The notes below the pieces were generated by a model. That model was given only the letters and a program-made list of their open reading frames with translations, was not told where the DNA came from and did no database searches. Below are positions 4,292 through 63,868 of a DNA stretch of 64,000 nucleotides, piece after piece. The stretch covers positions 576,985 through 640,984 of the forward strand of contig NZ_OY759719.1 of NCBI RefSeq assembly GCF_963662555.1, given 5' to 3'. Positions within the stretch are counted from its first letter, which is position 1. Every line of letters begins with the position of its first letter. Origin of the DNA: Thiomicrorhabdus sp. (GTDB taxonomy: Bacteria > Pseudomonadota > Gammaproteobacteria > Thiomicrospirales > Thiomicrospiraceae). The position numbers and the translations under genes are program-made.

Positions 4292-5134
4292 ATGAGAAAA
4301 CTGTTGTTTACCGATTTAGATGGCTCTCTTTTGGATCATCATAATTACGACTACTCTCAAGCTCTGCCTGCGTTACAAGCTTTAAAAGCTCAAAATATTC
4401 CATGGATTTTAACCACCAGTAAAACTGCAGAAGAGGTGATTGATATCAAAAGACAGTTAGAAAACCCTTACCCATTTATTGTAGAAAATGGAGCAGGGGT
4501 TTTCTGGCCAAAACAGAGTATGCAGTTTACTGATGTGTTTGAGCGTCAATGGTTGCAAAACATTGAGATTCAAACTTGGCAAAACGACTTTGAATATATA
4601 AGTTTAAATTCCGTTTCAATGACTCAAATGCTTGAGCTTGCAAACGAATTTAGAAAAAAGCTCAATCTTATATTTACGAGCTTTTCAGAAATGAGTGCTC
4701 AGCAGGTGACCGACTGCACCGGCTTGACCGTAGAGCAATCAGCGAAAGCAAAACAACGTCACTTTTCAGAACCTTTGCTTTGGCAAGATTCAGAAGAAAA
4801 ATTACAGCAATTTAAACGTGCTTTACAACCTCATGGTTTACAACTTATTAAAGGTGGCAGATTTGTGCATTTAATGGGGTTGAGTAATAAAGGCCTTGCA
4901 TTACGTTTCTTGGCCGACTACTACTACCAGGCCTGGCAAACACCTATTGAAACCATGGCGTTGGGAGACGGTAATAATGATGTACCATTATTGGAGGCGA
5001 GTGATTACCCAGTGGTGATTCGCTCTCCAGTTAATCCACCTCCACAAGTGAATCACCCTAATGTAGTTGTAACCAAAGAATACGGCCCCGAAGGCTGGAA
5101 CAACGCAGTTTTAAACTGGCTCGTTGTTAATTAA
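4292..5134 (+). CDS. gpgP: glucosyl-/mannosyl-3-phosphoglycerate phosphatase (HAD-IIB, YedP/MpgP family)
   Basis: 280 aa with HAD motifs DLDGSLLD, TTSKT and GDGNND. It sits next to a GpgS-like synthase. Confidence 0.75.
   Translation: MRKLLFTDLDGSLLDHHNYDYSQALPALQALKAQNIPWILTTSKTAEEVIDIKRQLENPYPFIVENGAGVFWPKQSMQFTDVFERQWLQNIEIQTWQNDFEYISLNSVSMTQMLELANEFRKKLNLIFTSFSEMSAQQVTDCTGLTVEQSAKAKQRHFSEPLLWQDSEEKLQQFKRALQPHGLQLIKGGRFVHLMGLSNKGLALRFLADYYYQAWQTPIETMALGDGNNDVPLLEASDYPVVIRSPVNPPPQVNHPNVVVTKEYGPEGWNNAVLNWLVVN
4927..4936. repeat. CCAGGCCTGG palindrome, exact copy
   Basis: Inside gpgP, read as Q-A-W (taCCAGGCCTGGca). Confidence 0.95.
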
Positions 5135-5184
5135 TTACAAATTTATAAAGAGTACGCAAACCCCAAAGAAGGGAAGGAGCAAGT

Positions 5185-6423
5185 ATGGACTTTTACCAAA
5201 ATGGCATTATCACCACCTTACACAATTTAGTGGATAGGCCCATCGAGGATATGGAGGCCGACTTACTTAAGTACAGCAAAAATCGCCCTCTAGGTTTGAT
5301 ATTGCCAAGCTTATATTCAGAGCTACAAACCCCCGCATTAGCCAAGATTGTCGAGGAGCTTAAATCGGTTCCTTATCTTGAAGAGATCGTAATTGGTTTA
5401 GACCGAGCAAATGAAGAAGAGTACCGACATGCGTTAGAGTATTTTTCAGTGTTACCGCAAGATGTTAAGGTCATTTGGAATGATGGCCCGCGAATGAAAG
5501 CGATTCATAAAAAATTAGTAGATGAAGGGATTGCACCAGAAGCTCCTGGAAAAGGACGAAATGTGTGGTACATGATTGGTTATGTTTTGGGGTCAGATCG
5601 AGTGGAGTCGGTTGCCTTACACGACTGTGATATTGTGACCTATGAACGTTCTTTATTGGCCCGTTTGATTTATCCTGTTGCCAACCCTCAGTTTAACTAT
5701 GCCTTTGCTAAAGGATTTTACACCCGTATTGCCAACGGTACTATGAATGGCCGAGTAACTCGTTTATTGGTTACGCCATTAATTAGAGCTTTGCAAAAAA
5801 CGGCAGGTGAGCAGAATGAACGGGCTAATGAGTATTTAGACCATATTGATTCTTACCGTTATCCTTTAGCAGGCGAATTTGCTTTTAGAACAGGGGTGAT
5901 TTCTGATTTACGTATTCCGTCAGATTGGGGACTTGAGATTGGCGTGCTTTCAGAAATGAAAAGAAACATTAGCTCTAACCGAATTTGTCAGGTAGATATT
6001 GCTGATATTTATGACCATAAACACCAAGAATTATCGCCTGAAGATGCCCAAAAAGGGCTTTCTAAAATGTCGATAGATATTGCCAAAGCGTTTTATCGTA
6101 AATTGGCTGCAGAAGGGGTTACGTTTACTCAAGAAGGTTTTAGAACCTTAAAAGCGACTTATTACCGAATAGCCTTGGATTTGATTGAGTCTTATCGTAA
6201 TGACGCCATTATGAATGGCTTAACCTTAGATGTGCACAAAGAAGAAATTGCGGTTGAGATGTTTTCTGAAAACATCATCAAAGCTGGGCGTCACTTTTTA
6301 GATGCTCCAATGGAAACGCCGTTTATTCCTTCATGGAATCGTGTTTCATCTGCTTTTCCAGATATATTACAAGAAATTACCGAAGCGGTTAAGGCCGATA
6401 TGGATGAGTATAAATCAAAATAA
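5185..6423 (+). CDS. gpgS: glucosyl-3-phosphoglycerate synthase-like glycosyltransferase
   Basis: 412 aa. The N-terminus MDFYQNGIITTLHNL and the GKGRNVW and HDCDI motifs are as I recall them for GpgS/MpgS-type retaining glycosyltransferases. It is in an operon with the phosphatase. Confidence 0.7.
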   Translation: MDFYQNGIITTLHNLVDRPIEDMEADLLKYSKNRPLGLILPSLYSELQTPALAKIVEELKSVPYLEEIVIGLDRANEEEYRHALEYFSVLPQDVKVIWNDGPRMKAIHKKLVDEGIAPEAPGKGRNVWYMIGYVLGSDRVESVALHDCDIVTYERSLLARLIYPVANPQFNYAFAKGFYTRIANGTMNGRVTRLLVTPLIRALQKTAGEQNERANEYLDHIDSYRYPLAGEFAFRTGVISDLRIPSDWGLEIGVLSEMKRNISSNRICQVDIADIYDHKHQELSPEDAQKGLSKMSIDIAKAFYRKLAAEGVTFTQEGFRTLKATYYRIALDLIESYRNDAIMNGLTLDVHKEEIAVEMFSENIIKAGRHFLDAPMETPFIPSWNRVSSAFPDILQEITEAVKADMDEYKSK

Positions 6424-6434
6424 CTGGGGGTTTT

Positions 6435-8299: not shown

Positions 8300-9757
8300 A
8301 TGTCAGCTGCAGATATTGGTTTAATTGGCCTTGCCGTAATGGGGCAAAACTTGGTGTTAAATATGGCAGAACACGGCTTTCATGTCTGTGTTTACAACCG
8401 TTCAGAACAAAAAACCGATGAGTTTATTAAGAACCGAGCGCAAGGGTTTCCAATTAGTGCTGCTTACTCTTTAAAAGAGTTGGTTGATTCTTTGGCCGCA
8501 CCTCGTAAAGTCATGTTAATGGTTAAGGCTGGTGATGTGGTTGATGCCTTTATTGAACAGCTTGTTCCTTTATTAGATAAAGGCGACATCATTATTGATG
8601 GTGGTAATTCGCTGTATATTGATTCAAACCGCAGAACCAAAGAATTAGCCGAGAAAGGGATTTTGTTTATTGGTACAGGTGTTTCTGGGGGCGAAGAGGG
8701 TGCTCGTTTTGGGCCATCAATTATGCCAGGTGGTAATAAACAGGCCTGGGAAAGTGTTAAACCCATTTTTCAATCAATTGCCGCTAAATCGGGTGATGAA
8801 GCCTGCTGCGATTGGGTAGGTGACGATGGTGCTGGGCACTATGTAAAAATGGTGCATAACGGGATTGAGTATGGTGATATGCAACTGATTTCAGAAGCCT
8901 ATCAATTAATGCGAGAAGGCTTAGGTATGAGTGCTGACGAATGCCAAGCGGTATTTGCTGACTGGAATAAAGGCGTTTTAGACTCATACCTAATAGAAAT
9001 TACTGCTGAAATCTTAACCTTTAAAGACACAGATGGTGAGCCGTTGGTTGATAAGATTTTAGATGCAGCGGGTCAAAAGGGTACTGGTAAATGGACTGGT
9101 ATTAGCTCATTAGAGCTCGGTATTCCTGTTACTCTTATTACCGAGTCTGTTTATGCACGTTGTTTATCCGCTTTAAAAACAGAGCGTGTACAGGCCTCTA
9201 AAATTTATCCAAGAACCGCATCGACTAAAACCTATACGGCTGAAGAAAAACAAGCCATTGTAGCCTCAATTCATGACGCTCTATATGCCTCAAAAATCAT
9301 CTCTTACGCACAAGGTTATATGCTAATGGCAGAAGCTGCTAAAGCGTACAGCTGGGACTTAAATTACGGTGGTATTGCCTTAATGTGGCGTGGTGGTTGT
9401 ATTATTCGTAGCCGTTTCTTAGAAGAGATTAAACACGCTTACGAAAAACAACCAGGCCTGGCAAATCTACTGCAAGCACCTTTCTTTGAAAAGGCCATTA
9501 AAACCGCAGAAGATCACTGGCGTAAAGCCGTGGTTTTTGGTATTGAACAACAAATTGCGACTCCAACGTTAAGTTCTGCCTTAGCATTTTTTGATGGTTA
9601 TCGTAGTGAAGTTGTGCCAGCCAATTTATTGCAAGCACAACGTGATTACTTTGGTGCTCATACCTATGAGCGTGTTGATGCTCCACGTGGAGAGTTCTTC
9701 CATACCGATTGGATTCAATCTGGCGGTAATGTCAGCTCTACGACTTATGAGGTTTAA
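8300..9757 (+). CDS. gnd: 6-phosphogluconate dehydrogenase, decarboxylating
   Basis: 485 aa. N-terminal Rossmann motif [13 protein letters not shown], with full-length resemblance to Gnd. Confidence 0.95.
9452..9461. repeat. CCAGGCCTGG palindrome, exact copy
   Basis: Inside gnd, read as P-G-L (aaCCAGGCCTGGca). Confidence 0.95.
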
Positions 9758-11244: not shown

Positions 11245-11247
11245 GAG

Positions 11248-11979
11248 ATGGTTGTGAACGCTTCTTTACCAGCAAATTGGCAATTGTTTGATGATGCAGA
11301 AACGCTTGCCCAGCAACTAGTAGAAGAAATTCTTAATATTGCTGACCAGGCCATTCAGAAAAGAGGAGCGTTTCATTTCGTGACAGCGGGAGGTTCAACA
11401 CCAAATCGTTGTTATCAATTATTGGCCGAACGTCAAGCCGATTGGAAAAACTGGCATATATATATGGGCGATGAGCGTGTATTACCATTTAATCATGCCG
11501 AACGAAACTCTCAAGCTTTACTCAAATACTGGTTAAGCAATAATCTTATACCCGTCAAAAATATTCACTTTATTAATACCGAGGCAGGAGCTCAAAAGTC
11601 TGCTAAAGCCTATGCAAAGCTAATTGAATCTATTGATCATTTTGACGTGTGCTTATTGGGCATGGGTGAAGATGGACATACTGCAAGTTTGTTTCCAGGT
11701 CATGAACAAGGCCAGAGCATTGAACAGGTTTTTGTAAATGATAATGTTCAACAGGCTGATATTATTATTGAAAACAATTCACCTAAACCACCTAGCCAAA
11801 GGGTGAGTTTAAGTTATTCAGCATTTGCTAAATGTGATTTAGTGATTAAGCTTATTACTGGTGAGTCTAAACGTGATGCCATCAAGCAATGGTTAAATAC
11901 TGAAGGTGAACTACCCATTCAAAAAGTGCAGGGTAAGCAGACTAAGGTATATATTGCTCAAGACTCTTTACCTGACTAA
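11248..11979 (+). CDS. pgl: 6-phosphogluconolactonase
   Basis: 243 aa with TAGGSTP and GMGEDGHTASLFPG motifs of the DevB/Pgl family. It immediately follows zwf. Confidence 0.9.
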   Translation: MVVNASLPANWQLFDDAETLAQQLVEEILNIADQAIQKRGAFHFVTAGGSTPNRCYQLLAERQADWKNWHIYMGDERVLPFNHAERNSQALLKYWLSNNLIPVKNIHFINTEAGAQKSAKAYAKLIESIDHFDVCLLGMGEDGHTASLFPGHEQGQSIEQVFVNDNVQQADIIIENNSPKPPSQRVSLSYSAFAKCDLVIKLITGESKRDAIKQWLNTEGELPIQKVQGKQTKVYIAQDSLPD

Positions 11980-12094
11980 GCTTCAAAAATATAAGTTTTT
12001 AGAACTTAAAAAATTTTAAGTACATGATTTCTTGGCTCTGTTCTAGAGTTATCTTTCTATTTGATCTTGTTTTTAAAATCTTCAATTTGATAAC

Positions 12095-22010: not shown

Positions 22011-22019
22011 GGGGATGCC

Positions 22020-23593: not shown

Positions 23594-23603
23594 CCAGGCC
23601 TGG
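23594..23603. repeat. CCAGGCCTGG palindrome, exact copy
   Basis: Intergenic. It extends to the 16-bp palindrome TTACCAGGCCTGGTAA (23591-23606). Confidence 0.95.
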
Positions 23604-29336: not shown

Positions 29337-29346
29337 CCAGGCCTGG
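29337..29346. repeat. CCAGGCCTGG palindrome, exact copy
   Basis: Intergenic, in the dabB / O-antigen-ligase divergent region. Confidence 0.95.
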
Positions 29347-30992: not shown

Positions 30993-31364
30993 TTAAACAA
31001 TAGGCTTTATACAGCGATTAAAATAATGCTTTAAAAGCAGCTTCCAAAGTATAAACGCGGTTACAACACCACTTAAATTCCCCAGCATATCGCCCTCGCT
31101 AAATTCACGACTAACTTGTAAATAATGCTGTAAATATTCCAGGCCTGGTGCACTTAAAAATAGAGCAAACCAAACCAACCAAATGCCTTTATTACAAAAG
31201 GCAAAACGGGTTACTAAACTAAAACCAAAAAAGGCAATAAAGTGCAGGTATTTATCTGAATGAGTAAATAAATTAGGCGGGCTTTCGGGGCGTAAAATAC
31301 CGTAAAGCAGTATGACTAAACATACTAAAAACAAAAAATAGCGAATACGATATAAAAAATGCAC
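30993..31364 (-). CDS. VanZ-like family membrane protein
   Basis: 123 aa with 4 predicted TM segments and a VanZ-like layout. Confidence 0.65.
   Translation of the reverse strand: MHFLYRIRYFLFLVCLVILLYGILRPESPPNLFTHSDKYLHFIAFFGFSLVTRFAFCNKGIWLVWFALFLSAPGLEYLQHYLQVSREFSEGDMLGNLSGVVTAFILWKLLLKHYFNRCIKPIV
31139..31148. repeat. CCAGGCCTGG palindrome, exact copy
   Basis: Inside the minus-strand VanZ-like CDS, read as P-G-L. Confidence 0.95.
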
Positions 31365-43829: not shown

Positions 43830-45152
43830 TCATTTTTTTGACAAATAAATTGTAGTTGTAATTAACAGTAAATTTAGTAGAACATTTAATGTGCTAAAGG
43901 ATGCTATAGTTACTAAAGCACTATTGGTTAAGTAGTAGCTGACAAGTAAGGTTGCAAATCTTAAAAAAAGTGAAAGCACTTCAAAAAGAAATATTTCTTT
44001 TTGGAACCCTAATACAGGTATTGAAACAAAGCTTGGTCTGTTAATAAATGCTGAATAAAGCCACAATGATAGCCAACGGGCATATTCTCCTGCACTATTC
44101 CATTCTTCACCAAAAACAAAACTGAAAAGCCAAGGCCCAATTACAATGACTATACCAAATGGTACTAGGCCTAATAATGCTAATGCTTTTGTTGCTTTTA
44201 ATATTAATTTATCTAGCTCTTCATTATTATGAGAGGCATCATTTATTCGTGGATAAAAGACGTCGCCTACTGATTTACCTATTAATTTTGCGGGTATTTC
44301 TAAAACCATTCTGGCTAAGGAATAAAATCCCGCGGCTATGGGTCCAAAAAAACTGGCTAAAATTAAAACGGGCATATTTTGAGAAATCGCATTGATGAAT
44401 AATTGCGGGGCACGATATAGTGGAAAGTCTATATGAGCAATTGCTAACTGGTTTACTGTCTTTGGGTTGTCATCTGAATCCATTTCAGCTTTGGCATTTG
44501 TATTGAATTTAAGGCTAATAGCCATCATAAATGCATGCAATGCACTACCTAAAGCAGTAATGGTAATTAGAACCACGGCTGTTGGGTTTATCCATCCAAT
44601 TCCTGTTTTTGTACTGTTAATGATTAATGATTGAACAATTGCAATTTTTGCAGTTGTTTTAAATTGTTTTTTCCGAATGAGCCATTGCTCGGTAATCTGT
44701 AGTAACGTCGCAAAAAATAATGCAAGAGGTATTAACATCATGTAGGGTGAAATCTTTTCTGAGCCAATAAGATTAAGTATAGATTCTCCCCAAAAATATA
44801 GAATTATTGAGAAAAAACAAGTAATGATAAATGCAAGGAAAAATGAAAGCTTAGCAATTAATTTGGCATCTGTATCTTTTTTCGGTAACACGATCGCTAC
44901 AGGGTACGTTAAAGCTGTTATTGGAGCTAATATTGCTATTAATGCGACAAATACACCTAATAACCCAAAAGTTTCTGGGCCGTATATGCGAGTAAGAAAA
45001 GGTGCAAAAGCCATGGTAATCGCCTGGGCACCAGCCGTTCCTGTTGCGACGATAGCGACGTTGCGAACAAATTTATTTTTTGTTATTTGTTGAATTTTGG
45101 CTTTCACACTGCAACTTCTTAAAGGGATAACCTTTCTTATCCTGGAATTCAC
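43830..45152 (-). CDS. wzx: Wzx-type (MOP family) repeat-unit flippase
   Basis: 440 aa, 12-14 TM segments. The GTG start from the ORF track is uncertain. Confidence 0.75.
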   Translation of the reverse strand: MNSRIRKVIPLRSCSVKAKIQQITKNKFVRNVAIVATGTAGAQAITMAFAPFLTRIYGPETFGLLGVFVALIAILAPITALTYPVAIVLPKKDTDAKLIAKLSFFLAFIITCFFSIILYFWGESILNLIGSEKISPYMMLIPLALFFATLLQITEQWLIRKKQFKTTAKIAIVQSLIINSTKTGIGWINPTAVVLITITALGSALHAFMMAISLKFNTNAKAEMDSDDNPKTVNQLAIAHIDFPLYRAPQLFINAISQNMPVLILASFFGPIAAGFYSLARMVLEIPAKLIGKSVGDVFYPRINDASHNNEELDKLILKATKALALLGLVPFGIVIVIGPWLFSFVFGEEWNSAGEYARWLSLWLYSAFINRPSFVSIPVLGFQKEIFLFEVLSLFLRFATLLVSYYLTNSALVTIASFSTLNVLLNLLLITTTIYLSKK

Positions 45153-45161
45153 CAGGCCTGG
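45152..45161. repeat. CCAGGCCTGG palindrome, exact copy
   Basis: At the ugd-stop / wzx-start junction (caCCAGGCCTGGtaaattt). Confidence 0.95.
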
Positions 45162-45181: not shown

Positions 45182-46405
45182 TTAATCGTTACCAAACAAA
45201 TCACGGGTATAGACTTTATCCGCTACATCTAATAAATCATCAATCATGCGATTGGCAATGATTACATTACTTTGTTTTTTAAATTCATTGAAGTCATTGA
45301 TGACTTTTGAGTGAAAGAACTCAGTTTTGCCTTCTTCTGTTAAAACAGGTTCGTAAATGACGACTTCAATACCTTTGGCTTTGATGCGTTTCATAATGCC
45401 TTGAATGGCACTGGCTCTAAAATTGTCTGACCCTTGTTTCATAACTAGGCGATAAATTCCAACGATGCCATTGCCTGTGGTTGGGTTCTGAATATCAAAA
45501 CTAGGATCGTTTTGAAGTTTTTTAATGACTTGTTCTGCAATAAAGTCTTTACGGGTGGTGTTTGAATCTACGATTGCTCTAATAATATTATTAGGTACAT
45601 CTTGATAATTGGCTAACAGTTGTTTGGTGTCTTTTGGTAGGCAGTAACCACCATAACCAAAACTTGGATTGTTGTAGTGATTTCCAATGCGAGGGTCTAA
45701 GCCTACACCTTCAATGACTTGTTTAGCACTTAAACCATGACTTTCACAATAGGTGTCTAGTTCATTAAAGTAAGAGACACGCATCGCTAAATAAGTGTTA
45801 GAGAAGAGTTTGACTGCTTCGGCTTCTGTACTATTGGTAAATAGAACGGGAATCTCTTCTTTTGCTTTAGCAGCACCTTCAACTAACAGGCCTGCAAATA
45901 TTTTAGCTTGCTCAGACTCATCGCCTACAATAATACGTGACGGATAAAGATTATCGTAAAGGGCTTTACCTTCTCTTAAAAACTCTGGAGAAAAGATAAT
46001 ATTATTGCAGTTAAATTTGGCTTTAACTTGATCTGTGTAACCGACTGGAATAGTCGATTTAATGATCATGGTGGTATTTGGGTTAATGGCTAAAACATCC
46101 GCAATGACCGCTTCTACTGAACGAGTATTAAAGGTATTGGTAACCGTGTCGTAATCAGTTGGAGTGGCTATTATGACAAAATCGGCATTTTGGTAGGCCT
46201 GGTCTTTGTCTAAAGTGGCGGTAAAGTTTAGGGATTTATTTTCTAGAAAATCAGTGATTTCGGTATCAACTATTGGAGATTGTTTTTTGTTTAGTAAATC
46301 AATCTTTTCAGGAATGATATCTAAAGCGACCACTTCATGGTTTTGAGCCAATAATACAGCTAAAGATAAACCTACATATCCGGTTCCAGCGACTGCGATT
46401 TTCAT
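45182..46405 (-). CDS. ugd: UDP-glucose 6-dehydrogenase
   Basis: 407 aa with [13 protein letters not shown] and the catalytic motif [10 protein letters not shown]. Confidence 0.9.
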
Positions 46406-46536: not shown

Positions 46537-46965
46537 CTATTTACACAAGTTATATGTATTTTGTTTAGTGGCTTTTGCATACATGCAGGTTAGTGCAAGT
46601 AAGTTATTGGCTTGTAAAATGGGCTTTAATTTTTTAGCGTTTTTAGGGCCGCTTGTGGCTTGTTGGGTAATGACTCTTAACATGTCACTTTTGGTTTTGT
46701 TGTTTAATTTTTGCCAGGCCTGTATGCCAAGCTGTATAAATAATGGGGTAACTTCTGGATTATGATTTGATGTGAGTTTTACCTGATTGTAGGTGTGATA
46801 AAGCTCTTTGTCATACTGGTTAAGTTCAATTTTTATACTTAATAAATTTAACCAGGCTTTTGGCCATAACGGGATTAGGGCTGTTTGTTTGCGATACGAT
46901 TGTAATGCGTGTAAGCGATTTCGTTGGGCATTACTGTCTGCAATGGTTGCGAATATGTCTGCCAC
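46537..46965 (-). CDS. hypothetical protein, possibly the 3' part of a frameshifted gene
   Basis: 142 aa from a GTG. It overlaps the upstream ORF by 91 nt in another frame. Confidence 0.4.
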   Translation of the reverse strand: MADIFATIADSNAQRNRLHALQSYRKQTALIPLWPKAWLNLLSIKIELNQYDKELYHTYNQVKLTSNHNPEVTPLFIQLGIQAWQKLNNKTKSDMLRVITQQATSGPKNAKKLKPILQANNLLALTCMYAKATKQNTYNLCK

Positions 46966-47237
46966 TGTAAAATCTTGCCTTTATTCTCTTGTAAAAAAGC
47001 ATTATTAACGGGGTTTATATTTATGGCGTTTTCACTGGCTTGTTTGGCCGCTAACCAGGCCTGGTCATTTGGTGTTGTTTTTTTATTTTGCCAATCATTT
47101 AAAAATAGATTGCTTTGAATGTTGTATAAACTTGCAATAAGCATGCTTGCGGCTAAATAAATGACCAGGCCTGCAAAAATTAGTAAGCCAATCGCTTTTA
47201 ATTTATTAATTTGTATTTTTGCTTGGTTGATAGTCAT
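46875..47237 (-). CDS. membrane-anchored hypothetical protein, possibly the 5' part of a frameshifted gene
   Basis: 120 aa with one N-terminal TM segment (IGLLIFAGLVIYLAASMLIASL). Confidence 0.45.
   Translation of the reverse strand: MTINQAKIQINKLKAIGLLIFAGLVIYLAASMLIASLYNIQSNLFLNDWQNKKTTPNDQAWLAAKQASENAININPVNNAFLQENKGKILQWQTYSQPLQTVMPNEIAYTHYNRIANKQP
47055..47064. repeat. CCAGGCCTGG palindrome, exact copy
   Basis: Inside minus-strand ORF 46875..47237, read as Q-A-W. Confidence 0.95.
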
Positions 47238-48046: not shown

Positions 48047-50269
48047 TTAGCTTTTGCTATAACCGTAATAGTCATAATATCCATCGTAACCATAGCCGTG
48101 CTTTTTGGCTTTCTTGATATCAACCTGGTTCAAAATAGTGCCTTGCATTGGTGCTCGGTGCTGTAGTAGTTTACCAATCCCTTTTTTAACCAGGTCTTTG
48201 GATGTGGATTCTGCTTTAACAACATAAAGCACAGCATCTGCAAAGGTGGATAGCAATAGTGCATCACTTACTGCTTGAACAGGTGGTGAGTCGATAATGA
48301 TTCGATCATATTCCACCGACAACTCTTGCAATGTGCGTTTAAACTTTTCAGTTGAAAGTAGTTCTAACGGATTCGGTGGTACTACGCCTGCCACCATGGT
48401 GTCGATACCACCGTATAAAGATTGAATAGCTTCTTCTTGGGTTGCTGTGCCAGCAATTAAATTTGCCAGGCCTGGTGTTCCAGGCGGTAATCCAAAACTG
48501 CGAGCGATATTTGGGCGACGCATATCGGCTTCTATAAGCAATACTTTTTCATTTTCACGAAGAGCATCGGATAAGTTAACCGATAAACTGGTTTTACCTT
48601 CCCCAGGTATGGAGGAGGTAATCACTATGATTTTATGTGGTTTTTCAATGGCAGATAAGGTTACCCCGGTGCGAATGGTTTTAATCGCTTCAGAGAAAAT
48701 TTTATCTGTGGCTTTATGGTACATTTGCGAAATATGCTGATTAGGTTTTTTTACAATCAATGGTACAACACCGAGTACTGGTAGGTTGGTTGCCATTTCA
48801 ATTTCATCGGTACTCTTAAAGGTGTTGTTCAAAGCATTTAATAGCAAAATTAAAAATACGGCTAACATTCCAGATAACAGGCCTGCTAAAACGATAATTA
48901 ACGATTTTTTAGGTTTAATCGGCTGGGTTGGAATAACAGCAGGATCAACAATACGAGCATTGGTTGTTTCAATATCAGCGGTCGCCGTAGTCTCTTTTAA
49001 ACGGTTTATAAAGGTGTCAAAAACCGCTTGGTTTGAATCTACTTCAAGTTGTAATGCTCTTAATTTATATTCGTCTTTAGAGATTTCTTTAATTTGTTCT
49101 TTGTTTTCATTGACTGACTTTTGTAAAGAACGTTCATTAGCTGAAGCAATTTGATACTCTTTTTGAATACCCGCAACAATTTGCTGTACTTGAGTTTTTA
49201 GGCTGGTTTGTGCTGCGTTTAAGTCACTTAAAGCGGCTTGCATAGCAGGGTGCTTTTTGCCATATCTTTTGGATAGCTCTTCAACTTTAGCTCTGGCTTT
49301 GGCTTCATCGGCTTTAAAGGTTTGGATTAACGGATGGCTTAATACTGCTGGTACGGTAGACAAACGTTTCCAGTCGTCTTTTTTAATATTTCTGACTTGG
49401 TTATATTGGCTTTCGGCCTCGGCTCTTTTACTACGTGCATCGACTAGGCGTTGGTTAATGGCTGAGAGTTCATTGGCTGAAATAGTGACAACGCCTTTAA
49501 CATCAATTAAGCCTTCTTTTTCTTTATAGGCCTGTAACTTGTCTTCTGATTTTTGAAGTTTTTCTTTTATATCAACTAGGCGTTCATTCATCCATTTAGT
49601 TGCGGTTAAAGAGTCTTCCATAGCGGCATCAAGCTGGCTTTTAATAAATTCTTTACCGATTTCATTTGCTGCAAGTGTGGCTAATTTAGGGTCGGCCATT
49701 TGCACACTGATATTGGCAAGTTGACTCTTCTTAATTGGTGATATAGAGACTCTCTTCATGAACTTATTCACAACTGAATCTAAGATTTCTTGTTCAGTAA
49801 GTGGTTTTTCTGCTAAATCTTCCGGTGATTGACCCGGTAAAAATTGCTTAAGGTTAAATGATTTAATAAAACCTTTAATGTCGATAAGCGGTGGCTTTTG
49901 TTGTCTTGGATCAAACTCTGGATTAGTTGTTAAATTGAGCTTTTTTACGACTCTTTCGGCAAGTACACGAGACTGAAGTAATTGAAACTGGGTAATTAAG
50001 TAGTCATTATCATTGCTTAGGCCGTAAACAGGATCAAATGAGACAACTTTATTTTCTTTTGGGTCTATTTGAATGGTTGCTGTGGCTTGGTAGGTTGGTG
50101 TAATACTCATAACGATAAGAGTAGTAAGTAACATCACAATAAAAACTAAGCTAATAATGCTCCATTTTTTACGCCAAACTGCCTTAATTAAAGGTAATAG
50201 GTCGATGACATCGTTATTTTGTGAGATGTTGTTGTCTGTTTGGTTTTGCATATTGATTGAGTTACCCAT
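48047..50269 (-). CDS. wzc: polysaccharide co-polymerase / BY-type tyrosine autokinase
   Basis: 740 aa. Two TM segments flank a coiled-coil periplasmic region. It has Walker A SSIPGEGKTS, IIDSPP and a C-terminal Tyr cluster HGYGYDGYYDYYGY. Confidence 0.9.
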   Translation of the reverse strand: MGNSINMQNQTDNNISQNNDVIDLLPLIKAVWRKKWSIISLVFIVMLLTTLIVMSITPTYQATATIQIDPKENKVVSFDPVYGLSNDNDYLITQFQLLQSRVLAERVVKKLNLTTNPEFDPRQQKPPLIDIKGFIKSFNLKQFLPGQSPEDLAEKPLTEQEILDSVVNKFMKRVSISPIKKSQLANISVQMADPKLATLAANEIGKEFIKSQLDAAMEDSLTATKWMNERLVDIKEKLQKSEDKLQAYKEKEGLIDVKGVVTISANELSAINQRLVDARSKRAEAESQYNQVRNIKKDDWKRLSTVPAVLSHPLIQTFKADEAKARAKVEELSKRYGKKHPAMQAALSDLNAAQTSLKTQVQQIVAGIQKEYQIASANERSLQKSVNENKEQIKEISKDEYKLRALQLEVDSNQAVFDTFINRLKETTATADIETTNARIVDPAVIPTQPIKPKKSLIIVLAGLLSGMLAVFLILLLNALNNTFKSTDEIEMATNLPVLGVVPLIVKKPNQHISQMYHKATDKIFSEAIKTIRTGVTLSAIEKPHKIIVITSSIPGEGKTSLSVNLSDALRENEKVLLIEADMRRPNIARSFGLPPGTPGLANLIAGTATQEEAIQSLYGGIDTMVAGVVPPNPLELLSTEKFKRTLQELSVEYDRIIIDSPPVQAVSDALLLSTFADAVLYVVKAESTSKDLVKKGIGKLLQHRAPMQGTILNQVDIKKAKKHGYGYDGYYDYYGYSKS
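48466..48475. repeat. CCAGGCCTGG palindrome, exact copy
   Basis: Inside minus-strand wzc, read as P-G-L. Confidence 0.95.
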
Positions 50270-54165: not shown

Positions 54166-56343
54166 ATGAATATCGCTCACAATGCAAACAACCAGGAGAG
54201 CAAGGTGTTGTTTAGAAATCAATATTTTATAAAGACTCTATTTCAAGCTTTATTAGTGACAACGGTGAGTTTTGTACTGTTATTTTCAAGCACTCAATCG
54301 GCATTGGCTGAAGGAACCTTAAAACAGAATTTTAAACAGGCTGATATTAAAACGGTGATTGAGGCTGTAGCTAAGATTACCGGTAAAAACTTTATTATTG
54401 ACCCTCGCGTAAAAGGGAATGTAACTTTTATTGCTCCTGAAGGGATGAAACCTGAAGAGTTGTATGACTCTTTGTTAGCTGTTCTGAATGTTTATGGTTA
54501 TGTAGCAATACCTGCGGATGGTGTTATTAAGGTGGTGCCGGCGAATATTGCACGAGATCAAATCCCTTACCGTAATTGGACTGAGTATGATGAAGATTGG
54601 GTAACCGAAGTTATTAGTATTTATAACGTTAATGCCAGTAAGTTAGTGGCAGTTTTACGCCCGTTAGTTGCTAAAGAAGGGCATTTAGTGGCGTTGGCGG
54701 AAAGCAATAAATTGATTGTTTCAGATACGGTTTCTAATATTAAGCGTTTAAAAAGTATTTTAAAACGTGTAGATGTTGATGTTAAAGGTGCTTTTGAGGT
54801 GATTCCTATTAAAAACACCTCAGCAGTTGATTTGGCAAAAACTTTAAAAAGTGTGATGCCTAAAAATCAAGGTGGTGTTGATGCAACGATTGGTTTTGAT
54901 GCTCGCTCAAATCGAATTATTTTAAGTGGCGATGAAATTAAACGCATGATGTTACGTGCGTTAATTGCAGAACTTGATGTACCGATGGATGCCGAAGGCG
55001 GTGTTCAAGTTATTTATTTACGCTACGCTAAAGCTGCAGATATTGCTCCAATTTTGCAAAAAATTGCCAGTAATCAAGCTATTCAAGTTAGCGAAGAAAC
55101 CACCACCACTTCTTCTGCGCCAAAAGCAGCTGCAGCTCCTGAAAGTGTGGCTGGGATTCCTGAACAGGTTACTGGTTTGAATATGTCGGTTTTGAATAAA
55201 AACGAGCTTAAAGAAAAAATTAGTATTGAAGCCGATGAACGCATGAATGCTTTGGTTATCAGTGCACCAACTGCTGTTGCAAATGGTTTGAAAAAAGTTA
55301 TAAAGCAGTTGGACATTAGGCGTGCTCAAGTATTGATTGAAGCAATTTTTGTTGAAATTGCAGCAGATAAAGCGGCTGCATTGGGTGTTGAATGGGGCCT
55401 AAGTGGTGCAGGCGGTGCGGGAGTTATTAACTTTTCGGGTGCGATTCCTGCATTGATTGGTAACTCTGGCAATGTATTGGCTCAGTCTCAGGTTATCGGT
55501 TCGGGCATTACCTTAGCAGGCGGTAATGTTGATTCAGATGGTTATGGATGGGGGGCTTTGATTAGTGCCTTAAACTCAGATTCATCTTCTAATATTTTGG
55601 CAACACCTTCTGTATTAACTTTGGATAATGAAGAAGCTGAAATTTTAGTGGGTAAAGAGGTGCCGTTTCAAACGGGAACTTATGCCAATACTGGAACTTC
55701 AATCACTAATCCGTTTAGTACAATTGAACGAAAAAATGTGGGTTTGAAACTAAAAGTTAAGCCGCAAATCAATGAAGGTAATGAGGTCTACTTGGATATT
55801 GATCAAGAAGTTTCTGATGTGATTGATAAGGGTCAAGCAATAGACATTCAAACTTCTAAACGCCAAATTAAAACCAAGGTTATTGTAGGCGATGGCAAGA
55901 TGGTTGTGCTAGGTGGTTTGATTAATGAAAAAGAAGTTCGTTCAAAATCAAAAGTTCCAGGCCTGGGTGATATACCTGGTTTGGGTAGTCTATTTAGCTC
56001 ATCAAAAGATACTCGTGAAAAAGTGAATTTAATGGTGTTTTTACGCCCGATAATTATTCGCAATAATGAGATGAGCGACTATTACAGTAATAAAAAATAT
56101 AACTATATTTATCAACAACAAGAAGATATGTTGAATAAAAAAGAAGGACAGTTATTAGAAGGACTTCGTCCAAGATTACCTACACAAAAGCAATTTGAAA
56201 ATAGCGAGCCTGCAACACCGTACAGTGAGGAGCAAAAAGCCAAAGAAACGGCGGCTAAAGAACAAGCTAAAACAGATAAAGCGAGTAAAAAAGATGACTC
56301 ATTGATTCAAGAAATGAGTACAGAAGACCTGTTAGGTTTATAA
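54166..56343 (+). CDS. gspD: type II secretion system secretin
   Basis: 725 aa with N-domains and a secretin core (VPGLGDIPGLGSLF). It carries a Lys/Glu-rich C-terminal tail. Confidence 0.95.
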   Translation: MNIAHNANNQESKVLFRNQYFIKTLFQALLVTTVSFVLLFSSTQSALAEGTLKQNFKQADIKTVIEAVAKITGKNFIIDPRVKGNVTFIAPEGMKPEELYDSLLAVLNVYGYVAIPADGVIKVVPANIARDQIPYRNWTEYDEDWVTEVISIYNVNASKLVAVLRPLVAKEGHLVALAESNKLIVSDTVSNIKRLKSILKRVDVDVKGAFEVIPIKNTSAVDLAKTLKSVMPKNQGGVDATIGFDARSNRIILSGDEIKRMMLRALIAELDVPMDAEGGVQVIYLRYAKAADIAPILQKIASNQAIQVSEETTTTSSAPKAAAAPESVAGIPEQVTGLNMSVLNKNELKEKISIEADERMNALVISAPTAVANGLKKVIKQLDIRRAQVLIEAIFVEIAADKAAALGVEWGLSGAGGAGVINFSGAIPALIGNSGNVLAQSQVIGSGITLAGGNVDSDGYGWGALISALNSDSSSNILATPSVLTLDNEEAEILVGKEVPFQTGTYANTGTSITNPFSTIERKNVGLKLKVKPQINEGNEVYLDIDQEVSDVIDKGQAIDIQTSKRQIKTKVIVGDGKMVVLGGLINEKEVRSKSKVPGLGDIPGLGSLFSSSKDTREKVNLMVFLRPIIIRNNEMSDYYSNKKYNYIYQQQEDMLNKKEGQLLEGLRPRLPTQKQFENSEPATPYSEEQKAKETAAKEQAKTDKASKKDDSLIQEMSTEDLLGL
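55957..55966. repeat. CCAGGCCTGG palindrome, exact copy
   Basis: Inside gspD, read as P-G-L. Confidence 0.95.
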
Positions 56344-59147: not shown

Positions 59148-59594
59148 ATGGAAAGATTAATGAATAAACAAAAACTGAGACTTCAAAAGGGTTTTACACT
59201 GATTGAGTTAATGGTGGTTGTGGTTATTTTGGCAGTTTTAGCAGGCCTGGTTGTTCCTAATTTAATGGATCGACCTGATGAAGCACGTCTTGTTAAAGCC
59301 AAACAAGATATTTCAGCTATTTCATCGGCCTTAAAACTATATAAATTAGATAATTTTGTTTATCCAACAACTGATCAAGGCTTAGAAGCTTTAGTGACTA
59401 AACCGGATACAGATCCCGTTCCAAAAAATTGGAAAAATCTATTAGATAATGTACCTCTTGACCCATGGGGCAATCCGTATTTGTATTTATCGCCAGGTGA
59501 ACATGGTGCTTTTGATCTGTTTACCTATGGGGCTGACGGAGTAGAAGGGGGTGAAGGTGTGAATGCAACTATAGGCCAATGGAACATAAAGTAA
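59148..59594 (+). CDS. gspG: major pseudopilin
   Basis: 148 aa with the prepilin leader/cleavage motif [16 protein letters not shown]. Confidence 0.95.
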
Positions 59595-59616: not shown

Positions 59617-60129
59617 ATGGCCAACCGTGCTCTAGAATCACTCAAAAATCAGCAAGGGTTTACGCTGATAGAGTTAATGGTTGTTGTGGTCATTATGAGT
59701 GTGGTGGTTTCGGTTGGGGTTCTTTCATTAGGGCGGATTAATCAAGATTTGGCCGAGAATCAGCAGGCTAAAATTGAAAGCTATTTCAAACAGGTAGCTG
59801 ATCAATCGGCTTTTAATCAAAAAATGTATTTAATTGCTCCAGATGATGAAGGCTTAACCACCTACAAATATGTGAATTATGAATGGCAACCTGCAGATGA
59901 TATTGCCAATTTAGCTTGGCAAAATGGATTTGAAGTCTCTTGGGTTTTGGATGAACATTTTGCAGAGCAACAAAAACTTACCAGGCCTGGTTGGGTGTTT
60001 TGGCCCAGTGGTGATGTTTTAAGTGGCAGCATTACATTAAAGAACTTAGATACAAATACTGGTAGCTCTGCAACCAACAGAGAAATGAAACTCAGTTGGA
60101 ATGAAGCACTAGAGTTCACTCGAGATTAA
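59617..60129 (+). CDS. gspH: minor pseudopilin H
   Basis: 170 aa with [16 protein letters not shown]. Confidence 0.85.
   Translation: MANRALESLKNQQGFTLIELMVVVVIMSVVVSVGVLSLGRINQDLAENQQAKIESYFKQVADQSAFNQKMYLIAPDDEGLTTYKYVNYEWQPADDIANLAWQNGFEVSWVLDEHFAEQQKLTRPGWVFWPSGDVLSGSITLKNLDTNTGSSATNREMKLSWNEALEFTRD
59981..59990. repeat. CCAGGCCTGG palindrome, exact copy
   Basis: Inside gspH, read as R-P-G. Confidence 0.95.
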
Positions 60130-62153: not shown

Positions 62154-63390
62154 GAACCATAGTCAAACCGAAATACAGCAAACAGATGGCATTTTAGCCA
62201 ATTCGCTAGTAGCTAGTATCTCGTTGCAAGGTGAGTTGCAAATTCAAACGATTGATGGGCAATTGTTAAAGACTGAAGAGGTGATTTCTAAACTTAAATC
62301 GAGCCGTCGATTAGCCAAAGAAATTGCCATTGTTTGGTTGCCAACTCAAAAAATTGTGATGACCGAAGTTACTGTACCAGGTAAACGCAAGGCACACTGG
62401 ATGGCTGCTTTGCCGTTTTCTTTAGAAGAGAGCTTGGCAGAATCAATTGAAAACTATCACGTTGTAGCTTATCACCGAACAACAGAGGGTTTGGTATCGG
62501 TCGCGATTGCCACCCATGAGGACATGAAAAACTGGAAACGTGTGGTTGAGTCTTTTGGGTTACAGCATGTGCAGTTAATACCGAACTGTTTTAGGTTGGA
62601 AAACAGTAACGGTGAGTTGGCTCAAGACTCGCAAGCTTGGACAATTTATCATCAAGGTGAATGTGTATTAGTTAGAACCAGTGGTTATCAAGGCTTTGCG
62701 GGTAATACAAATTGGTATGTAGCAATTAAAGAACAGGCGTTAAACAATCTGTTTTTGAAAAAGCAGCAAGCGGATGCTCATATTGATGAAACTACGGTTA
62801 CCGACCAAGATCTGCTTACTAGTCATTCACAAAATTTAGCCAAAGTATTGCCGCTGAGTTTAAGTCAGTCTGCTTATAAAAGTAATGCGAGTGAGAAAGG
62901 CCATTGGTACGAATGGCGTTGGATTGGGGTACTATTTTTGGTAACGATTGTATTGTATTTGGGTATGCAAATGTTACAAACCCATCAACTACAAAAACAA
63001 GCCGCTTATGTTTCTCAGCAAAATACCAAGCTGTTTAAGGTGATGTTTCCTCAGGCTAAACGTATCGTTAATATTAAATCTCAAGCGTTAACCTATTTGA
63101 AACAGAGTGCTGAAGGCGATAAAGAAATTCAATTTTTAATGCCTATTTTGCAACAGATAGAACCTTGGTTTAATCAAGCTAAAACGGTAAAAGTTGAACA
63201 GTTGCAATGGCAAAGCGATAAAAAGCAGAAGGCGTTAGCAATCACAGTCAGTGCTCCGAGTTCTAAAGAGATAGAACGGTTAATATCGCTTCAGAAAGAA
63301 TCTAAAAATAGCGAATATACTATGACTCTAAACCTAAAAAATGTCACTGCAGAGGGTGCTGAGGGGGTGATTTATGTGGATGCAAATTAA
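62143..63390 (+). CDS. gspL: type II secretion system protein L
   Basis: 415 aa with a cytoplasmic actin-like domain, a single TM segment and a periplasmic domain. Operon position supports the call. Confidence 0.8.
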   Translation: MLGKNHSQTEIQQTDGILANSLVASISLQGELQIQTIDGQLLKTEEVISKLKSSRRLAKEIAIVWLPTQKIVMTEVTVPGKRKAHWMAALPFSLEESLAESIENYHVVAYHRTTEGLVSVAIATHEDMKNWKRVVESFGLQHVQLIPNCFRLENSNGELAQDSQAWTIYHQGECVLVRTSGYQGFAGNTNWYVAIKEQALNNLFLKKQQADAHIDETTVTDQDLLTSHSQNLAKVLPLSLSQSAYKSNASEKGHWYEWRWIGVLFLVTIVLYLGMQMLQTHQLQKQAAYVSQQNTKLFKVMFPQAKRIVNIKSQALTYLKQSAEGDKEIQFLMPILQQIEPWFNQAKTVKVEQLQWQSDKKQKALAITVSAPSSKEIERLISLQKESKNSEYTMTLNLKNVTAEGAEGVIYVDAN

Positions 63391-63868
63391 CCAGGCCTGG
63401 TTAAATTTAGATGCCCGTGAACAAACCTTGGTTAAAGCCTTGGCGGTCTTTCTAGTGTTGGTTTTGTTATACCTATTAATTTGGTCACCAATCCATAATC
63501 AAAAGCGACAAGCACAACAAACGTTAACCACGGCAGAACAAGAGTGGCAGTGGCTCAATAAACAAATACCTGCTGCAAAAGCCTTACTGGCCGAAGGTAG
63601 TAGTACTAACCTACAAAAGGTTGATACTCAAAATGGATTAATGTCATTATTGCAAAGTAGTTTACGCCAGCAAAACCTGTTTAAAGATATTAAAACATTA
63701 CAAGGTGTAGATAAGGGCGGTAAAGTGAGCTTTGAACAAGTAGATGCGACTCGTTTATTTAAATGGCTGACATTGCTTGAAAGGCAGGGAGTTGTGCCTA
63801 AAACCTTGCAAGTGAATTGGGTTGCACCAGGCCTGGTAAAAGCAGATATGCAATTTAAAGTAAATTAA
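63374..63868 (+). CDS. gspM: type II secretion system protein M
   Basis: 164 aa with an N-terminal TM segment. It overlaps the gspL end. Confidence 0.8.
   Translation: MWMQINQAWLNLDAREQTLVKALAVFLVLVLLYLLIWSPIHNQKRQAQQTLTTAEQEWQWLNKQIPAAKALLAEGSSTNLQKVDTQNGLMSLLQSSLRQQNLFKDIKTLQGVDKGGKVSFEQVDATRLFKWLTLLERQGVVPKTLQVNWVAPGLVKADMQFKVN
63391..63400. repeat. CCAGGCCTGG palindrome, exact copy
   Basis: Immediately after the gspL stop and inside the gspM 5' end, read as Q-A-W. Confidence 0.95.
63827..63836. repeat. CCAGGCCTGG palindrome, exact copy
   Basis: Inside gspM, read as P-G-L. Confidence 0.95.

Follow-up and report, generated by a model that had tools for sequence, protein, structure and literature searches.

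A highly iterated palindrome in a sulfur-oxidising gammaproteobacterium and its relatives

The highly iterated palindrome (HIP) HIP1 (GCGATCGC) of cyanobacteria is a short, GC-rich palindrome that contains methylase-type sites nested within it; at 0.2–2.5 copies per kb it is found in every reading frame as well as outside coding DNA. It is conserved between genomes, its one-off variants favour the end positions, and it is represented by variant words in some lineages and lost in some clades. HIP1 raises transformation efficiency in a methylation-dependent manner (bioRxiv 10.1101/2024.09.10.611283) and a role as an uptake sequence has been proposed for it (bioRxiv 10.64898/2026.06.24.733823). 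Synechococcus PCC 6312 has an alternate HIP, CAGGCCTG, which occurs at 0.37 per kb with an observed-to-expected ratio (O/E) of 14.7 (Xu, Lawrence & Durand 2018, PMC5861425; see also the preprint of Rodriguez-Cruz et al. 2026); that description concerns a single genome, without dialects or conservation analysis. The uptake signals of Pasteurellaceae (USS, AAGTGCGGT / ACAAGCGGT) and Neisseriaceae (DUS, AT-GCCGTCTGAA) are family-restricted words with dialects, built of a hyper-abundant 9–12-bp core and weaker flanks. They are made by substitution within genes, where the tripeptides they encode are enriched, are under-represented in coding DNA, and form terminators when intergenic; their flanks, placement and hairpins are described in PMC2817400.

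We find a word that shares these features in the window, a 64-kb stretch of Thiomicrorhabdus DNA that groups with Thiomicrospira/Hydrogenovibrio/Thiomicrorhabdus. The window holds 15 exact copies of the decamer CCAGGCCTGG, where Markov models of orders 1–6, trained with the word copies left out, predict 0.02–0.05 (O/E ~300–700); O/E thus stays above 300 in the window under the higher-order models as well. Dinucleotide shuffles of the window yield a mean of 0.03 decamers and a maximum of 1, and synonymous-codon shuffles of the ORFs yield 0.146 against 10 observed in the same ORF set. An earlier note on this DNA had placed all 15 copies at exactly the positions recovered here, and had likened the word, rightly, to HIP1 and uptake sequences. 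It also listed nine one-mismatch copies; there are ten (0.86 expected by chance), the one at 3393 (CCAAGCCTGG) having been overlooked and the one given as 34348 starting at 34347. The nested counts fall from 39 for AGGCCT to 25 for the octamer CAGGCCTG (0.5–0.9 expected), 15 for the decamer and 7 for the 12-mer ACCAGGCCTGGT. AGGCCT shows little excess beyond the octamer copies (14 in the window versus 8 expected), and the octamer is the unit with the strongest constraint.

There is little doubt that this is a HIP-type genomic word. The octamer itself is already known in the HIP literature and is not new as a word: it is identical to the alternate HIP of PCC 6312 and similarly dense (0.39 per kb in the window). 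The decamer is shared too, since 9 of the 12 octamers in the 23 kb of PCC 6312 plasmid NC_019681 lie in the identical CCAGGCCTGG, but the A..T extension to the 12-mer is not evident there. The higher O/E of the octamer here (~30–90) follows from the lower genome GC. PCC 6312 is a cyanobacterium, whereas the present host is a gammaproteobacterium, and the poorly understood HIP phenomenon is thereby extended to a second phylum. HIP1 shares with the word the traits of composition, distribution and conservation listed above; it differs in sequence and phylum and in having known cognate methyltransferases, DmtA and DmtC/slr0214, whereas the extended AT-tract flank and the clear use in terminators are features of this word and not of HIP1. 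The copies and near-copies in the window are as follows (tripeptides are those encoded by the word; L numbers designate relatives).

4927..4936: exact CCAGGCCTGG, mannosyl-3-phosphoglycerate-phosphatase-family gene (+), QAW; orthologous site kept in L081
8741..8748: octamer CAGGCCTG (ACAGGCCTGG), gnd (+), QAW; identical sequence in the L001 and L005 orthologues
9452..9461: exact decamer, gnd (+), PGL; kept in L081 and L001
10933..10942: exact decamer, zwf (+), PGL (KQPGLEI); word common to L081, L004, L008 and L083
14801..14808: octamer (CCAGGCCTGT), S6PP/PfkB gene (+), PGL
23594..23603: exact decamer, intergenic, between the aldehyde-dehydrogenase gene end and tRNA genes; centre of TTACCAGGCCTGGTAA
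26254..26261: octamer (GCAGGCCTGG), dabA (-), PGL
29337..29346: exact decamer, intergenic, between divergent dabB and Wzy-like gene
29730..29739: exact decamer, Wzy_C/O-antigen-ligase-like gene (+), PGL
29806..29815: exact decamer, same Wzy_C/O-antigen-ligase-like gene (+), RPG, with the rare Arg codon AGG
31139..31148: exact decamer, doubtful 123-aa ORF; probably spacer of convergent genes
34149..34156: octamer (GCAGGCCTGG), manC (-)
34348..34355: octamer (ACAGGCCTGG), manC (-)
45152..45161: exact decamer, junction of flippase ORF start and UDP-sugar dehydrogenase gene end
45887..45894: octamer (ACAGGCCTGC), UDP-glucose/GDP-mannose dehydrogenase gene (-), AGL
46715..46722: octamer (CCAGGCCTGT), 142-aa ORF (-)
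47055..47064: exact decamer, VpsP-like ORF (-), QAW
47166..47173: octamer (CCAGGCCTGC), VpsP-like ORF (-)
48466..48475: exact decamer, wzc tyrosine-kinase gene (-), PGL
48878..48885: octamer (ACAGGCCTGC), wzc (-)
55957..55966: exact decamer, gspD (+), first PGL of the secretin motif VPGLGDIPGLG
59242..59249: octamer (GCAGGCCTGG), ORF between gspF-like and gspH (+), AGL; presumably gspG, by operon position
59981..59990: exact decamer, gspH (+), RPG
63391..63400: exact decamer, overlap of gspL stop and gspM; centre of the 18-nt palindrome TTAACCAGGCCTGGTTAA
63827..63836: exact decamer, gspM (+), PGL
303..312: CCAGGCCAGG, one-off at an inner position; possibly a decayed or nascent copy, or chance
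3393..3402: CCAAGCCTGG, one-off at an inner position; possibly a decayed copy, or chance

The constraint acts on DNA, as the earlier note had proposed from the use of three reading registers and from copies outside genes. Exact decamers are read as PGL (eight), QAW (three) and RPG (two), on both strands; those at 23594 and 29337 are intergenic and those at 45152 and 63391 lie at gene junctions. The word requires rare codons—6.9% of Leu codons are CTG, and 4.6% of those for Arg are AGG—and yet 9 of the 14 PGL tripeptides in the window are written CCA-GGC-CTG, versus 0.1 expected. The tripeptides themselves are in excess (PGL 14 versus 4.6 expected, QAW 6 versus 1.1). Word-free relatives encode the KQPGLEI peptide of zwf through CCGGGCTTGG, CCCGGTTTAG and similar sequences. 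At the gnd site at 9452, orthologues of other genomes encode PEL, PDL or PNL, so that here the word came at the price of a changed residue (E/D/N to G). Genic copies stand in frame in conserved genes, without insertion relative to the orthologues. Copies originate by point substitution, at the price of rare synonymous codons and sometimes of an amino-acid change.

The extended form in this genome is preferentially (A)CCAGGCCTGG(T), with weak A- and T-tract flanks, AAAWYNAC-CAGGCCTG-GTNRWTTT. An A precedes 11 of the 15 exact decamers and a T follows 10, but only 7 have both; the claim that the flanks usually extend the symmetry thus holds for each side singly but not for the two jointly. The 16-nt palindrome reported at 23591–23606 (TTACCAGGCCTGGTAA) is correct. 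The symmetric AT tracts on either side reach significance as far as position -9, whether a copy is coding or non-coding, and flank information is lost beyond ~9 nt from the word. Among one-off variants of the 12-mer, 28 differ at one of the two outer positions and 3 in the inner eight; we looked for an excess of C-to-T deamination among one-off variants and found none. Copies are ~4-fold denser outside long ORFs, where 37% of them lie in 13% of the sequence; the other 63% lie within long ORFs. In about 13 of 120 copies the word sits at the middle of a long perfect palindrome that has A and T runs and lies just past a gene end; these palindromes fold at -11 to -17.5 kcal/mol, and a spacer word is often the top of a terminator-like hairpin.

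Comparative counts, taken from samples of 5–21 kb per genome and not from whole genomes, show the word to be unevenly spread. Among 22 genomes of the group, 12 have the CC form, 3 have R/Y flanks and 7 have none; these 7 fall in 3 coherent clades of a tree built from two proteins only. Flank dialects surround a shared core (ACCAGGCCTGGT, AGCAGGCCTGCT, RCAGGCCTGY): in sister lineages this core is flanked by G or R (GCAGGCCTGC, ACAGGCCTGT), and the G..C form is found in 2 metagenome contigs. Unrelated loci totalling 1.95 Mb contain 50 octamers versus 37 expected, with no comparable enrichment. Where copies could be aligned, at ~78% nucleotide identity, 3 of 3, 4 of 5 and 2 of 2 are intact (9/10), against a background retention of 10–13% (~12%) for all 10-mers. 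In L096, both PGLs of PGLGDIPGLG are written with the word, in a gene upstream of its gspE that is probably gspD. The word is a heritable trait, present in many members of the group formed by Thiomicrospira, Hydrogenovibrio, Thiomicrorhabdus and Thiosulfativibrio though not in every one, and with lineage-specific flank dialects; copies that have arisen are kept at orthologous positions.

The reading we prefer, tentatively and at slightly less than an even chance, is a self tag of the HIP or uptake-sequence type. A symmetric and probably dimeric protein, specific for this sequence and either binding or modifying DNA, would act on the word, and its gene would move horizontally; such movement would explain the hyper-abundance of the identical decamer in Synechococcus PCC 6312. 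In natural transformation, word-bearing DNA would have the advantage when it is taken up, when it recombines, or at both steps, and this advantage may depend on methylation, as a recent report describes for HIP1. Alleles with the word would then be fixed preferentially, through molecular drive and selection combined, so that the word would become enriched across the genome and persist there, in the manner of USS and DUS. The word has all the shared traits of these signals given above; they, however, are not palindromes, and it takes an inverted pair of them to make a hairpin, whereas the word is itself a palindrome. For them biased uptake has been shown by experiment, with ComP as the DUS receptor. 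A literature search found no report of natural competence in the Thiomicrospira/Hydrogenovibrio/Thiomicrorhabdus group, and neither the window nor any fetched locus contains a receptor, methyltransferase or Vsr gene. The hallmarks of the word would fit any process favouring it at the DNA level, and its anatomy does not separate uptake drive from selection for another function.

Two rival readings are less probable. It is possible, if rather doubtful, that the word is a non-functional by-product of methylation-linked biased repair, the ratchet that Elhai proposed for HIPs: a resident methyltransferase would mark the inner GGCC, AGGCCT or CAGGCCTG, and biased mismatch repair would preserve extensions and protect finished sites. 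Typical Type II methylase targets are indeed nested in the word, AGGCCT outside the octamer, like CGATCG outside HIP1, shows little enrichment, the outermost position of one-off variants is the pattern Elhai took as evidence, and both the patchy clade-wise spread and the identical cyanobacterial decamer fit mobile methylase genes. But GGCC already contains the G-C step required by Elhai's G-meC rule, so the model in that specific form does not predict extension to 8–12 bp; it explains neither the symmetric flanks to -9 nor the terminator placement, deamination variants are not in excess, and the window and fetched loci lack a methylase. For HIP1, Xu, Lawrence and Durand (PMC5861425) proposed arrayed sites bound by a protein that organises the nucleoid or chromosome, with selection for chromosome architecture keeping them in place; that precedent, the conservation of orthologous sites well over background and a long symmetric footprint typical of dimeric DNA-binding proteins speak for the same reading here. 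We consider it unlikely, as the word recurs about once per 2.5–4 kb and entire sister clades do without it. The known palindromic sites of chromosome organisers (parS, matS and those of SlmA and Noc) number tens per genome, far fewer than the word.

Three other origins we reject. Very-short-patch (VSP) repair by Dcm/Vsr raises CCWGG frequency in E. coli, and the decamer contains both CCAGG and CCTGG, from which the earlier note derived a Vsr/Dcm drive towards two abutting CCWGG sites. This does not stand and is very improbable: the group-wide core is CAGGCCTG, the dialects GCAGGCCTGC, ACAGGCCTGT and RCAGGCCTGY lack CCWGG, and CTTGG and CCAAG, the presumed precursors, stand at 1.6–1.9x expectation instead of being depleted. 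In E. coli the enrichment is modest and concerns a 5-mer, whereas in the present DNA that pentamer comes close to expectation (~1.2–1.4x) once the word is set aside, and correction at a single position presumably cannot give a >300-fold excess of a 10-mer. Still less probable, and at odds with most copies, are intrinsic terminators or cores of a small mobile repeat (REP/MITE). REP/BIME and MITE elements are palindromic, and ~10% of copies of the word are strong hairpins flanked by A/T runs just past gene ends, but those elements are longer, intergenic and inserted as units, whereas the word is 8–12 bp, mostly intragenic, in frame without insertion, made by substitution in place and devoid of flank information beyond ~9 nt. 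Least credible of all, with a negligible chance, is generation of the word by a PGL peptide motif or codon bias: the PGL register does account for 8 of 13 genic decamers, but the other registers and the non-coding copies, the rarity of the codons, the synonymous shuffles and the different spelling of the same peptides in word-free relatives all speak against it.

Exact decamers are absent from 10943–23593 and 31149–45151, as the earlier note had stated in reading these blocks as recently acquired. The absence is real, but the acquisition reading is only weakly supported, as neither gap is statistically unusual (P=0.38 for the largest, 0.06 for the second) and octamers occur inside them at 14801, 34149 and 34348. 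Only the lowest-GC glycosyltransferase part, ~37.5–45.1 kb (GC 29.5–32% over 38–44 kb), is fully word-free; at the average density of the window, ~3 octamers would be expected there.

The 64-kb window contains 15 occurrences of the palindromic decamer CCAGGCCTGG, at every coordinate reported in the earlier note, whereas the mean over dinucleotide-preserving shuffles is 0.03 occurrences and Markov models (order 1-6) trained without these copies predict 0.02-0.05. The claimed hyper-abundance therefore persists under higher-order models. Models of order 5-6 trained on the window itself predict 2-8 copies (2.1 and 7.7), because the word is learnt from its own copies in the 64-kb sample; we discarded them as controls in favour of the leave-out version, which predicts 0.04-0.05. 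The excess also survives a shuffle of synonymous codons that keeps both the proteins and their codon usage: 0.146 decamers are expected and 10 are observed in the same ORF set. The density in the window amounts to 0.23 per kb, with an observed-to-expected ratio of 300-700. The core octamer CAGGCCTG reaches 0.39 per kb, and its ratio ranges from ~30-50 under leave-out Markov models to ~90 at order 0. Both words are thus GC-rich perfect palindromes present at least 0.2 times per kb and more than 10-fold above expectation, which is the range of the highly iterated palindromes (HIPs). Gaps between copies look exponential in the window, which is too short for the 10-90 kb scale of HIP quasi-periodicity.

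The enrichment is centred on the octamer and fades outwards. Nested counts in the window are 39 for AGGCCT, 25 for CAGGCCTG, 15 for CCAGGCCTGG and seven for ACCAGGCCTGGT, the 12-mer that adds A and T to the ends of the decamer. The octamer is by far the most frequent palindrome of its length (25 occurrences, runner-up 13), and GGCC, AGGCCT and CCWGG outside the word stay near expectation in the window (1.2-1.75x). Ten sites in the window differ from the decamer by one mismatch, with 0.86 expected, and eight of them deviate solely at position 1 or 10. Nine of these had been listed before; the site at 3393 was missing and the one placed at 34348 starts at 34347. The same bias of single-base deviants towards the first and last positions, typical of HIPs, is found in 305 kb of sequence carrying the CC form (C before the octamer and G after it), where 46 exact 12-mers are accompanied by one-off variants at the two outer positions in 28 cases and at the inner eight in three; C-to-T changes are not in excess among these variants. 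The flanks of 109 octamers pooled from 15 genomes or contigs, all of one form, are informative, symmetric and significant to position -9, with C at -1 in 83%, A at -2 in 68%, Y at -4 in 82%, and A or T, predominantly A, at -5 to -8. The whole element reads roughly AAAWYNAC-CAGGCCTG-GTNRWTTT, and a degenerate 14-mer version of the word is WACCAGGCCTGGTW. Octamers inside and outside long ORFs, analyzed separately, display an equal flank pattern. The constraint is shown to be graded, strongest in the core and decreasing through positions ±5 and ±6 to the AT flanks; a hyper-abundant core of ~9-12 bp inside a longer, weaker flank consensus is also the anatomy of the DNA uptake sequences USS and DUS.

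The constraint acts on DNA rather than on a peptide, as had been proposed: copies lie on both strands and also in non-coding DNA, are read in three registers (PGL eight times, QAW three times and RPG twice among genic decamers), and use rare codons, CTG being 6.9% of Leu codons and AGG 4.6% of Arg codons. HIPs, too, are enriched in every reading frame and outside coding DNA. The spelling CCA-GGC-CTG encodes nine of the 14 PGL tripeptides (0.1 expected), CAG-GCC-TGG encodes four of the six QAW (0.36 expected), and AGG-CCT-GGn two of the three RPG (0.05 expected). The tripeptides themselves are over-represented in the proteins: 14 PGL against 4.6 expected, and six QAW against 1.1. In zwf, the peptide KQPGLEI is encoded by the word in the window and in two loci of other genomes (L004 and L008), and is spelled CCGGGCTTGG, CCCGGTTTAG or CCTGGATTGG in relatives; at a site in gnd, the window and the closely related locus L001 have PGL, and relatives have PEL, PDL or PNL. 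These comparisons indicate that the word arises in place by substitution, sometimes at the price of an amino-acid change. Deviating flanks within genes often follow protein constraint, as where GCA-GGC-CTG encodes AGL in place of PGL. REP or MITE elements are excluded, since no insertion accompanies the copies and their flanks are unrelated beyond ~9 nt; there is neither a longer unit nor block insertion, nor are the copies essentially intergenic. The GspD secretin motif VPGLGDIPGLG contains two PGLs, of which only the first is encoded by the word in the window (55957-55990). In a metagenome relative (L096, 6446-6473; gene inferred to be gspD) both are, in two decamers whose starts are separated by 18 nt, which illustrates how the word fills each permissive site.

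Once present, copies are maintained. In three independent genome pairs of ~78% nucleotide identity, 3/3, 4/5 and 2/2 aligned copies are intact (9/10 together), whereas in the same alignments only 10-13% of 10-mers are, whether all or just the GC-rich ones are counted. Such conservation of orthologous copies above background is another HIP characteristic.

Octamers are concentrated outside long ORFs: 37% of them lie in such DNA, which makes up only 13% of the sequence. Approximately 13 of 120 copies are the centres of perfect palindromes of up to 28 nt, which reach 4-10 bp past both ends of the octamer and are bordered by runs of A and T, for example AAAAACCACCAGGCCTGGTGGTTTTT. These long palindromes sit directly after gene ends or between convergent genes, and fold at -11 to -17.5 kcal/mol into stems of 9-11 bp closed by a GGCC loop; the window's own intergenic copies (23594 and 63391) form weaker hairpins. 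The word thus combines extended AT-rich flanks with under-representation in coding DNA, intergenic terminator-like hairpins and tripeptide enrichment, as USS and DUS do (compared with PMC2817400). A perfect TTGACA-17-TATAAT promoter-like site at 24034-24006 lies ahead of two tRNA genes (23794-23989, minus strand), and a terminator with a 15-bp stem follows them at 23786-23753; a decamer copy lies ~150 nt past this terminator.

To follow the word among relatives, we used 22 genomes of the group, sampled over 5-21 kb around gnd. Copies with CC..GG flanks are found in 12 of the 22, with 1-8 decamers per sample, and their carriers include H. crunogenus, H. halophilus, Thiosulfativibrio zosterae and Thiomicrorhabdus aquaedulcis. 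In T. chilensis and two MAGs octamers are as numerous (11 in 21 kb; seven in 10 kb), with A or G replacing the flanking C. Seven of the 22 samples, including those of H. kuenenii, T. indica, T. marina and Thiosulfatimonas sediminis, contain no octamer. A third flank form, AGCAGGCCTGCT, comes from metagenome contigs retrieved with GspE; all relatives in that scan have at most 71% identity, so it yielded data on dialects and no polarity of gain or loss between close strains. The states are clade-coherent on a gnd+zwf neighbour-joining tree, a rough one of two proteins only, with the R/Y clade branching from within the CC lineages. Dialects with C, G or R/Y flanks around a constant CAGGCCTG have their parallel in the family-level dialects of USS and DUS. 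With all comparative numbers taken from 5-21-kb samples, it is shown that the word is kept at orthologous sites, that flank preference is lineage-specific, that some clades lack the word wholly and that substitutions are fixed directionally towards it, genome-wide. The remaining loci contain 50 octamers against 37 expected in 1.95 Mb, nearly all of them from unrelated taxa, with a few metagenome contigs (65-71% GspE identity) that may be members of the group. StuI-like restriction avoidance of AGGCCT in word-free relatives is not convincing (16 observed, ~22 expected). In the word-free Thiosulfatimonas sediminis locus (L089), two IS66-family elements occupy 13781-18444, directly downstream of gnd-zwf-pgl.

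The same octamer replaces HIP1 in the cyanobacterium Synechococcus sp. PCC 6312, at 0.37 per kb and an observed-to-expected ratio of 14.7 (PMC5861425; bioRxiv 10.64898/2026.06.24.733823). Its plasmid pSYN6312.01 (NC_019681.1, 23,223 bp; locus L170) contains 12 octamers against 0.26 expected, and nine of the 12 are the exact decamer CCAGGCCTGG; therefore, the published octamer HIP of PCC 6312 is the decamer of the window. On the whole plasmid HIP1 is absent and the A..T extension is not clear. The word resembles HIP1 in frequency, in occupying all frames and non-coding DNA, in conservation between genomes and in end-biased one-off variants, and differs from USS and DUS, which are asymmetric, in being palindromic. 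As a palindrome without orientation it does not fit a Chi-type recombination hotspot, whose strand-oriented word is skewed towards the leading strand, but a Chi-like role following uptake may be envisaged. Our literature searches returned nothing on the word, HIPs, uptake sequences, competence or methylomes in this gammaproteobacterial group.

What maintains the word can be narrowed in part. The data do not support Dcm/Vsr drive at CCWGG, one mechanism suggested in the earlier note: the core persists in dialects that lack CCWGG, this pentamer is near expectation elsewhere, and CTTGG and CCAAG are enriched where depletion of CTWGG and CCWAG was expected. The reading we prefer, at slightly less than even odds, is that the word is a tag of self DNA, read by a symmetric protein, that would favour DNA carrying it during natural transformation. 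A bolder reading, which we regard as doubtful, is that the Thiomicrospira/Hydrogenovibrio/Thiomicrorhabdus group possesses a third independent family-level uptake or recombination signal, the first palindromic one, and has the word in common with a cyanobacterium through a recognition module (a methyltransferase or DNA receptor) swapped between phyla. In that case, the HIPs of cyanobacteria and the uptake sequences of proteobacteria would be one phenomenon. A methylation-linked repair ratchet without function, as in Elhai's model, which we rank second to the tag and consider an unlikely explanation, matches the end-biased variants and the patchy distribution; the G-meC step that it needs, however, is already contained in GGCC, and it leaves the AT flanks and terminator placement unexplained. 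An array of nucleoid-organizing sites ranks third, and we give it little credence.

The symmetric footprint of ~24 bp suggests a dimeric sequence-specific protein as the reader of the word, and the same decamer in two phyla suggests that its gene would be horizontally mobile; methyltransferases and restriction-modification-derived proteins are the most mobile genes of such kind. Pfam and NCBIfam scans of 40 long window ORFs (excluding the 37.5-43.8 kb glycosyltransferase block and several gsp ORFs) revealed no reader candidate and no ComP-type receptor. The pseudopilin-type genes of the window belong to the gspC-M operon, of which gspH was scanned and the adjoining small ORFs were left out. 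No methyltransferase was recognized in the window, the fetched loci or pSYN6312.01, and regular expressions for m5C-methylase motif IV and Vsr motifs found nothing in six-frame translations of every fetched locus. Nor did pSYN6312.01 yield anything relevant: it has only a ResIII helicase and a DUF559 protein (16026-16775), whose family we take to be related to the Vsr nuclease fold.

The feature is real and strong, and the earlier reading of it as HIP1- or uptake-sequence-like was correct: this HIP-type word, which has dialects within its gammaproteobacterial group, is identical to an alternate HIP of a cyanobacterium. To our knowledge, words this hyper-abundant occur solely in Pasteurellaceae (USS), Neisseriaceae (DUS) and cyanobacteria (HIPs). 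Finding the exact word of a cyanobacterial alternate HIP in a group of culturable gammaproteobacteria opens a comparative and experimental route to the function of HIPs, a 30-year question. Word-positive and word-free sister clades with at least three flank dialects constitute a natural comparative design, and profiling of word-positive against word-free genomes, crossed with Synechococcus PCC 6312, should point to the reader protein. In practical terms, the word distorts codon usage and protein sequence (the PGL and QAW excess) and supplies terminator-like hairpins, and could serve better genetic tools for these autotrophs.

Every HIP described to date is, as far as we know, cyanobacterial, and the present host is not: window proteins place it in Thiotrichales/Piscirickettsiaceae, near Thiomicrorhabdus. 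The gnd product has 92-93% identity to a Thiomicrorhabdus MAG and a metagenome contig (the closest relatives, L001 and L081) and 74-81% to Hydrogenovibrio and Thiomicrospira. The window encodes sugar and compatible-solute metabolism, gnd-zwf-pgl, dabAB, an exopolysaccharide cluster, the type II secretion operon gspC-M and two tRNAs. Avoidance of recently acquired DNA by the word, also suggested previously, is weakly supported, as neither of the two large gaps reaches significance (P=0.38 and 0.06). The octamer-free stretch at ~37.5-45.1 kb, where ~3 are expected, is the lowest-GC part of the glycosyltransferase block. This glycosyltransferase/flippase block (37500-45150) falls to 29.5-32% GC over 38-44 kb, against ~38-40% elsewhere, and looks like a recently exchanged serotype-type cassette; the EPS genes beside it (45.1-48.9 kb) contain seven octamers in 3.7 kb. 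A 731-aa ORF without Pfam match lies at the edge of the polysaccharide cluster (35313-37508, plus strand). The dabA/dabB pair (25012-28997, minus strand), a DAB-type inorganic carbon pump typical of this autotroph group, holds one octamer in dabA and has a decamer in the spacer upstream. Compatible-solute and sugar clusters lie on both sides of gnd-zwf-pgl: that at 4292-8192, kept in L081, comprises a mannosyl-3-phosphoglycerate-phosphatase-family gene, a 412-aa ORF without Pfam match and a GH13 gene, and that at 12203-18171 a fused sucrose-phosphate synthase/phosphatase, an S6PP-PfkB fusion and an amylosucrase-like GH13. Finally, GATC (112 observed) and CTAG (109 observed) are each about half as frequent in the window as the 221 copies expected at order 0; the shortage of GATC speaks against Dam-type methyl-directed repair in this genome, and a GATC-specific restriction system may lie behind it.
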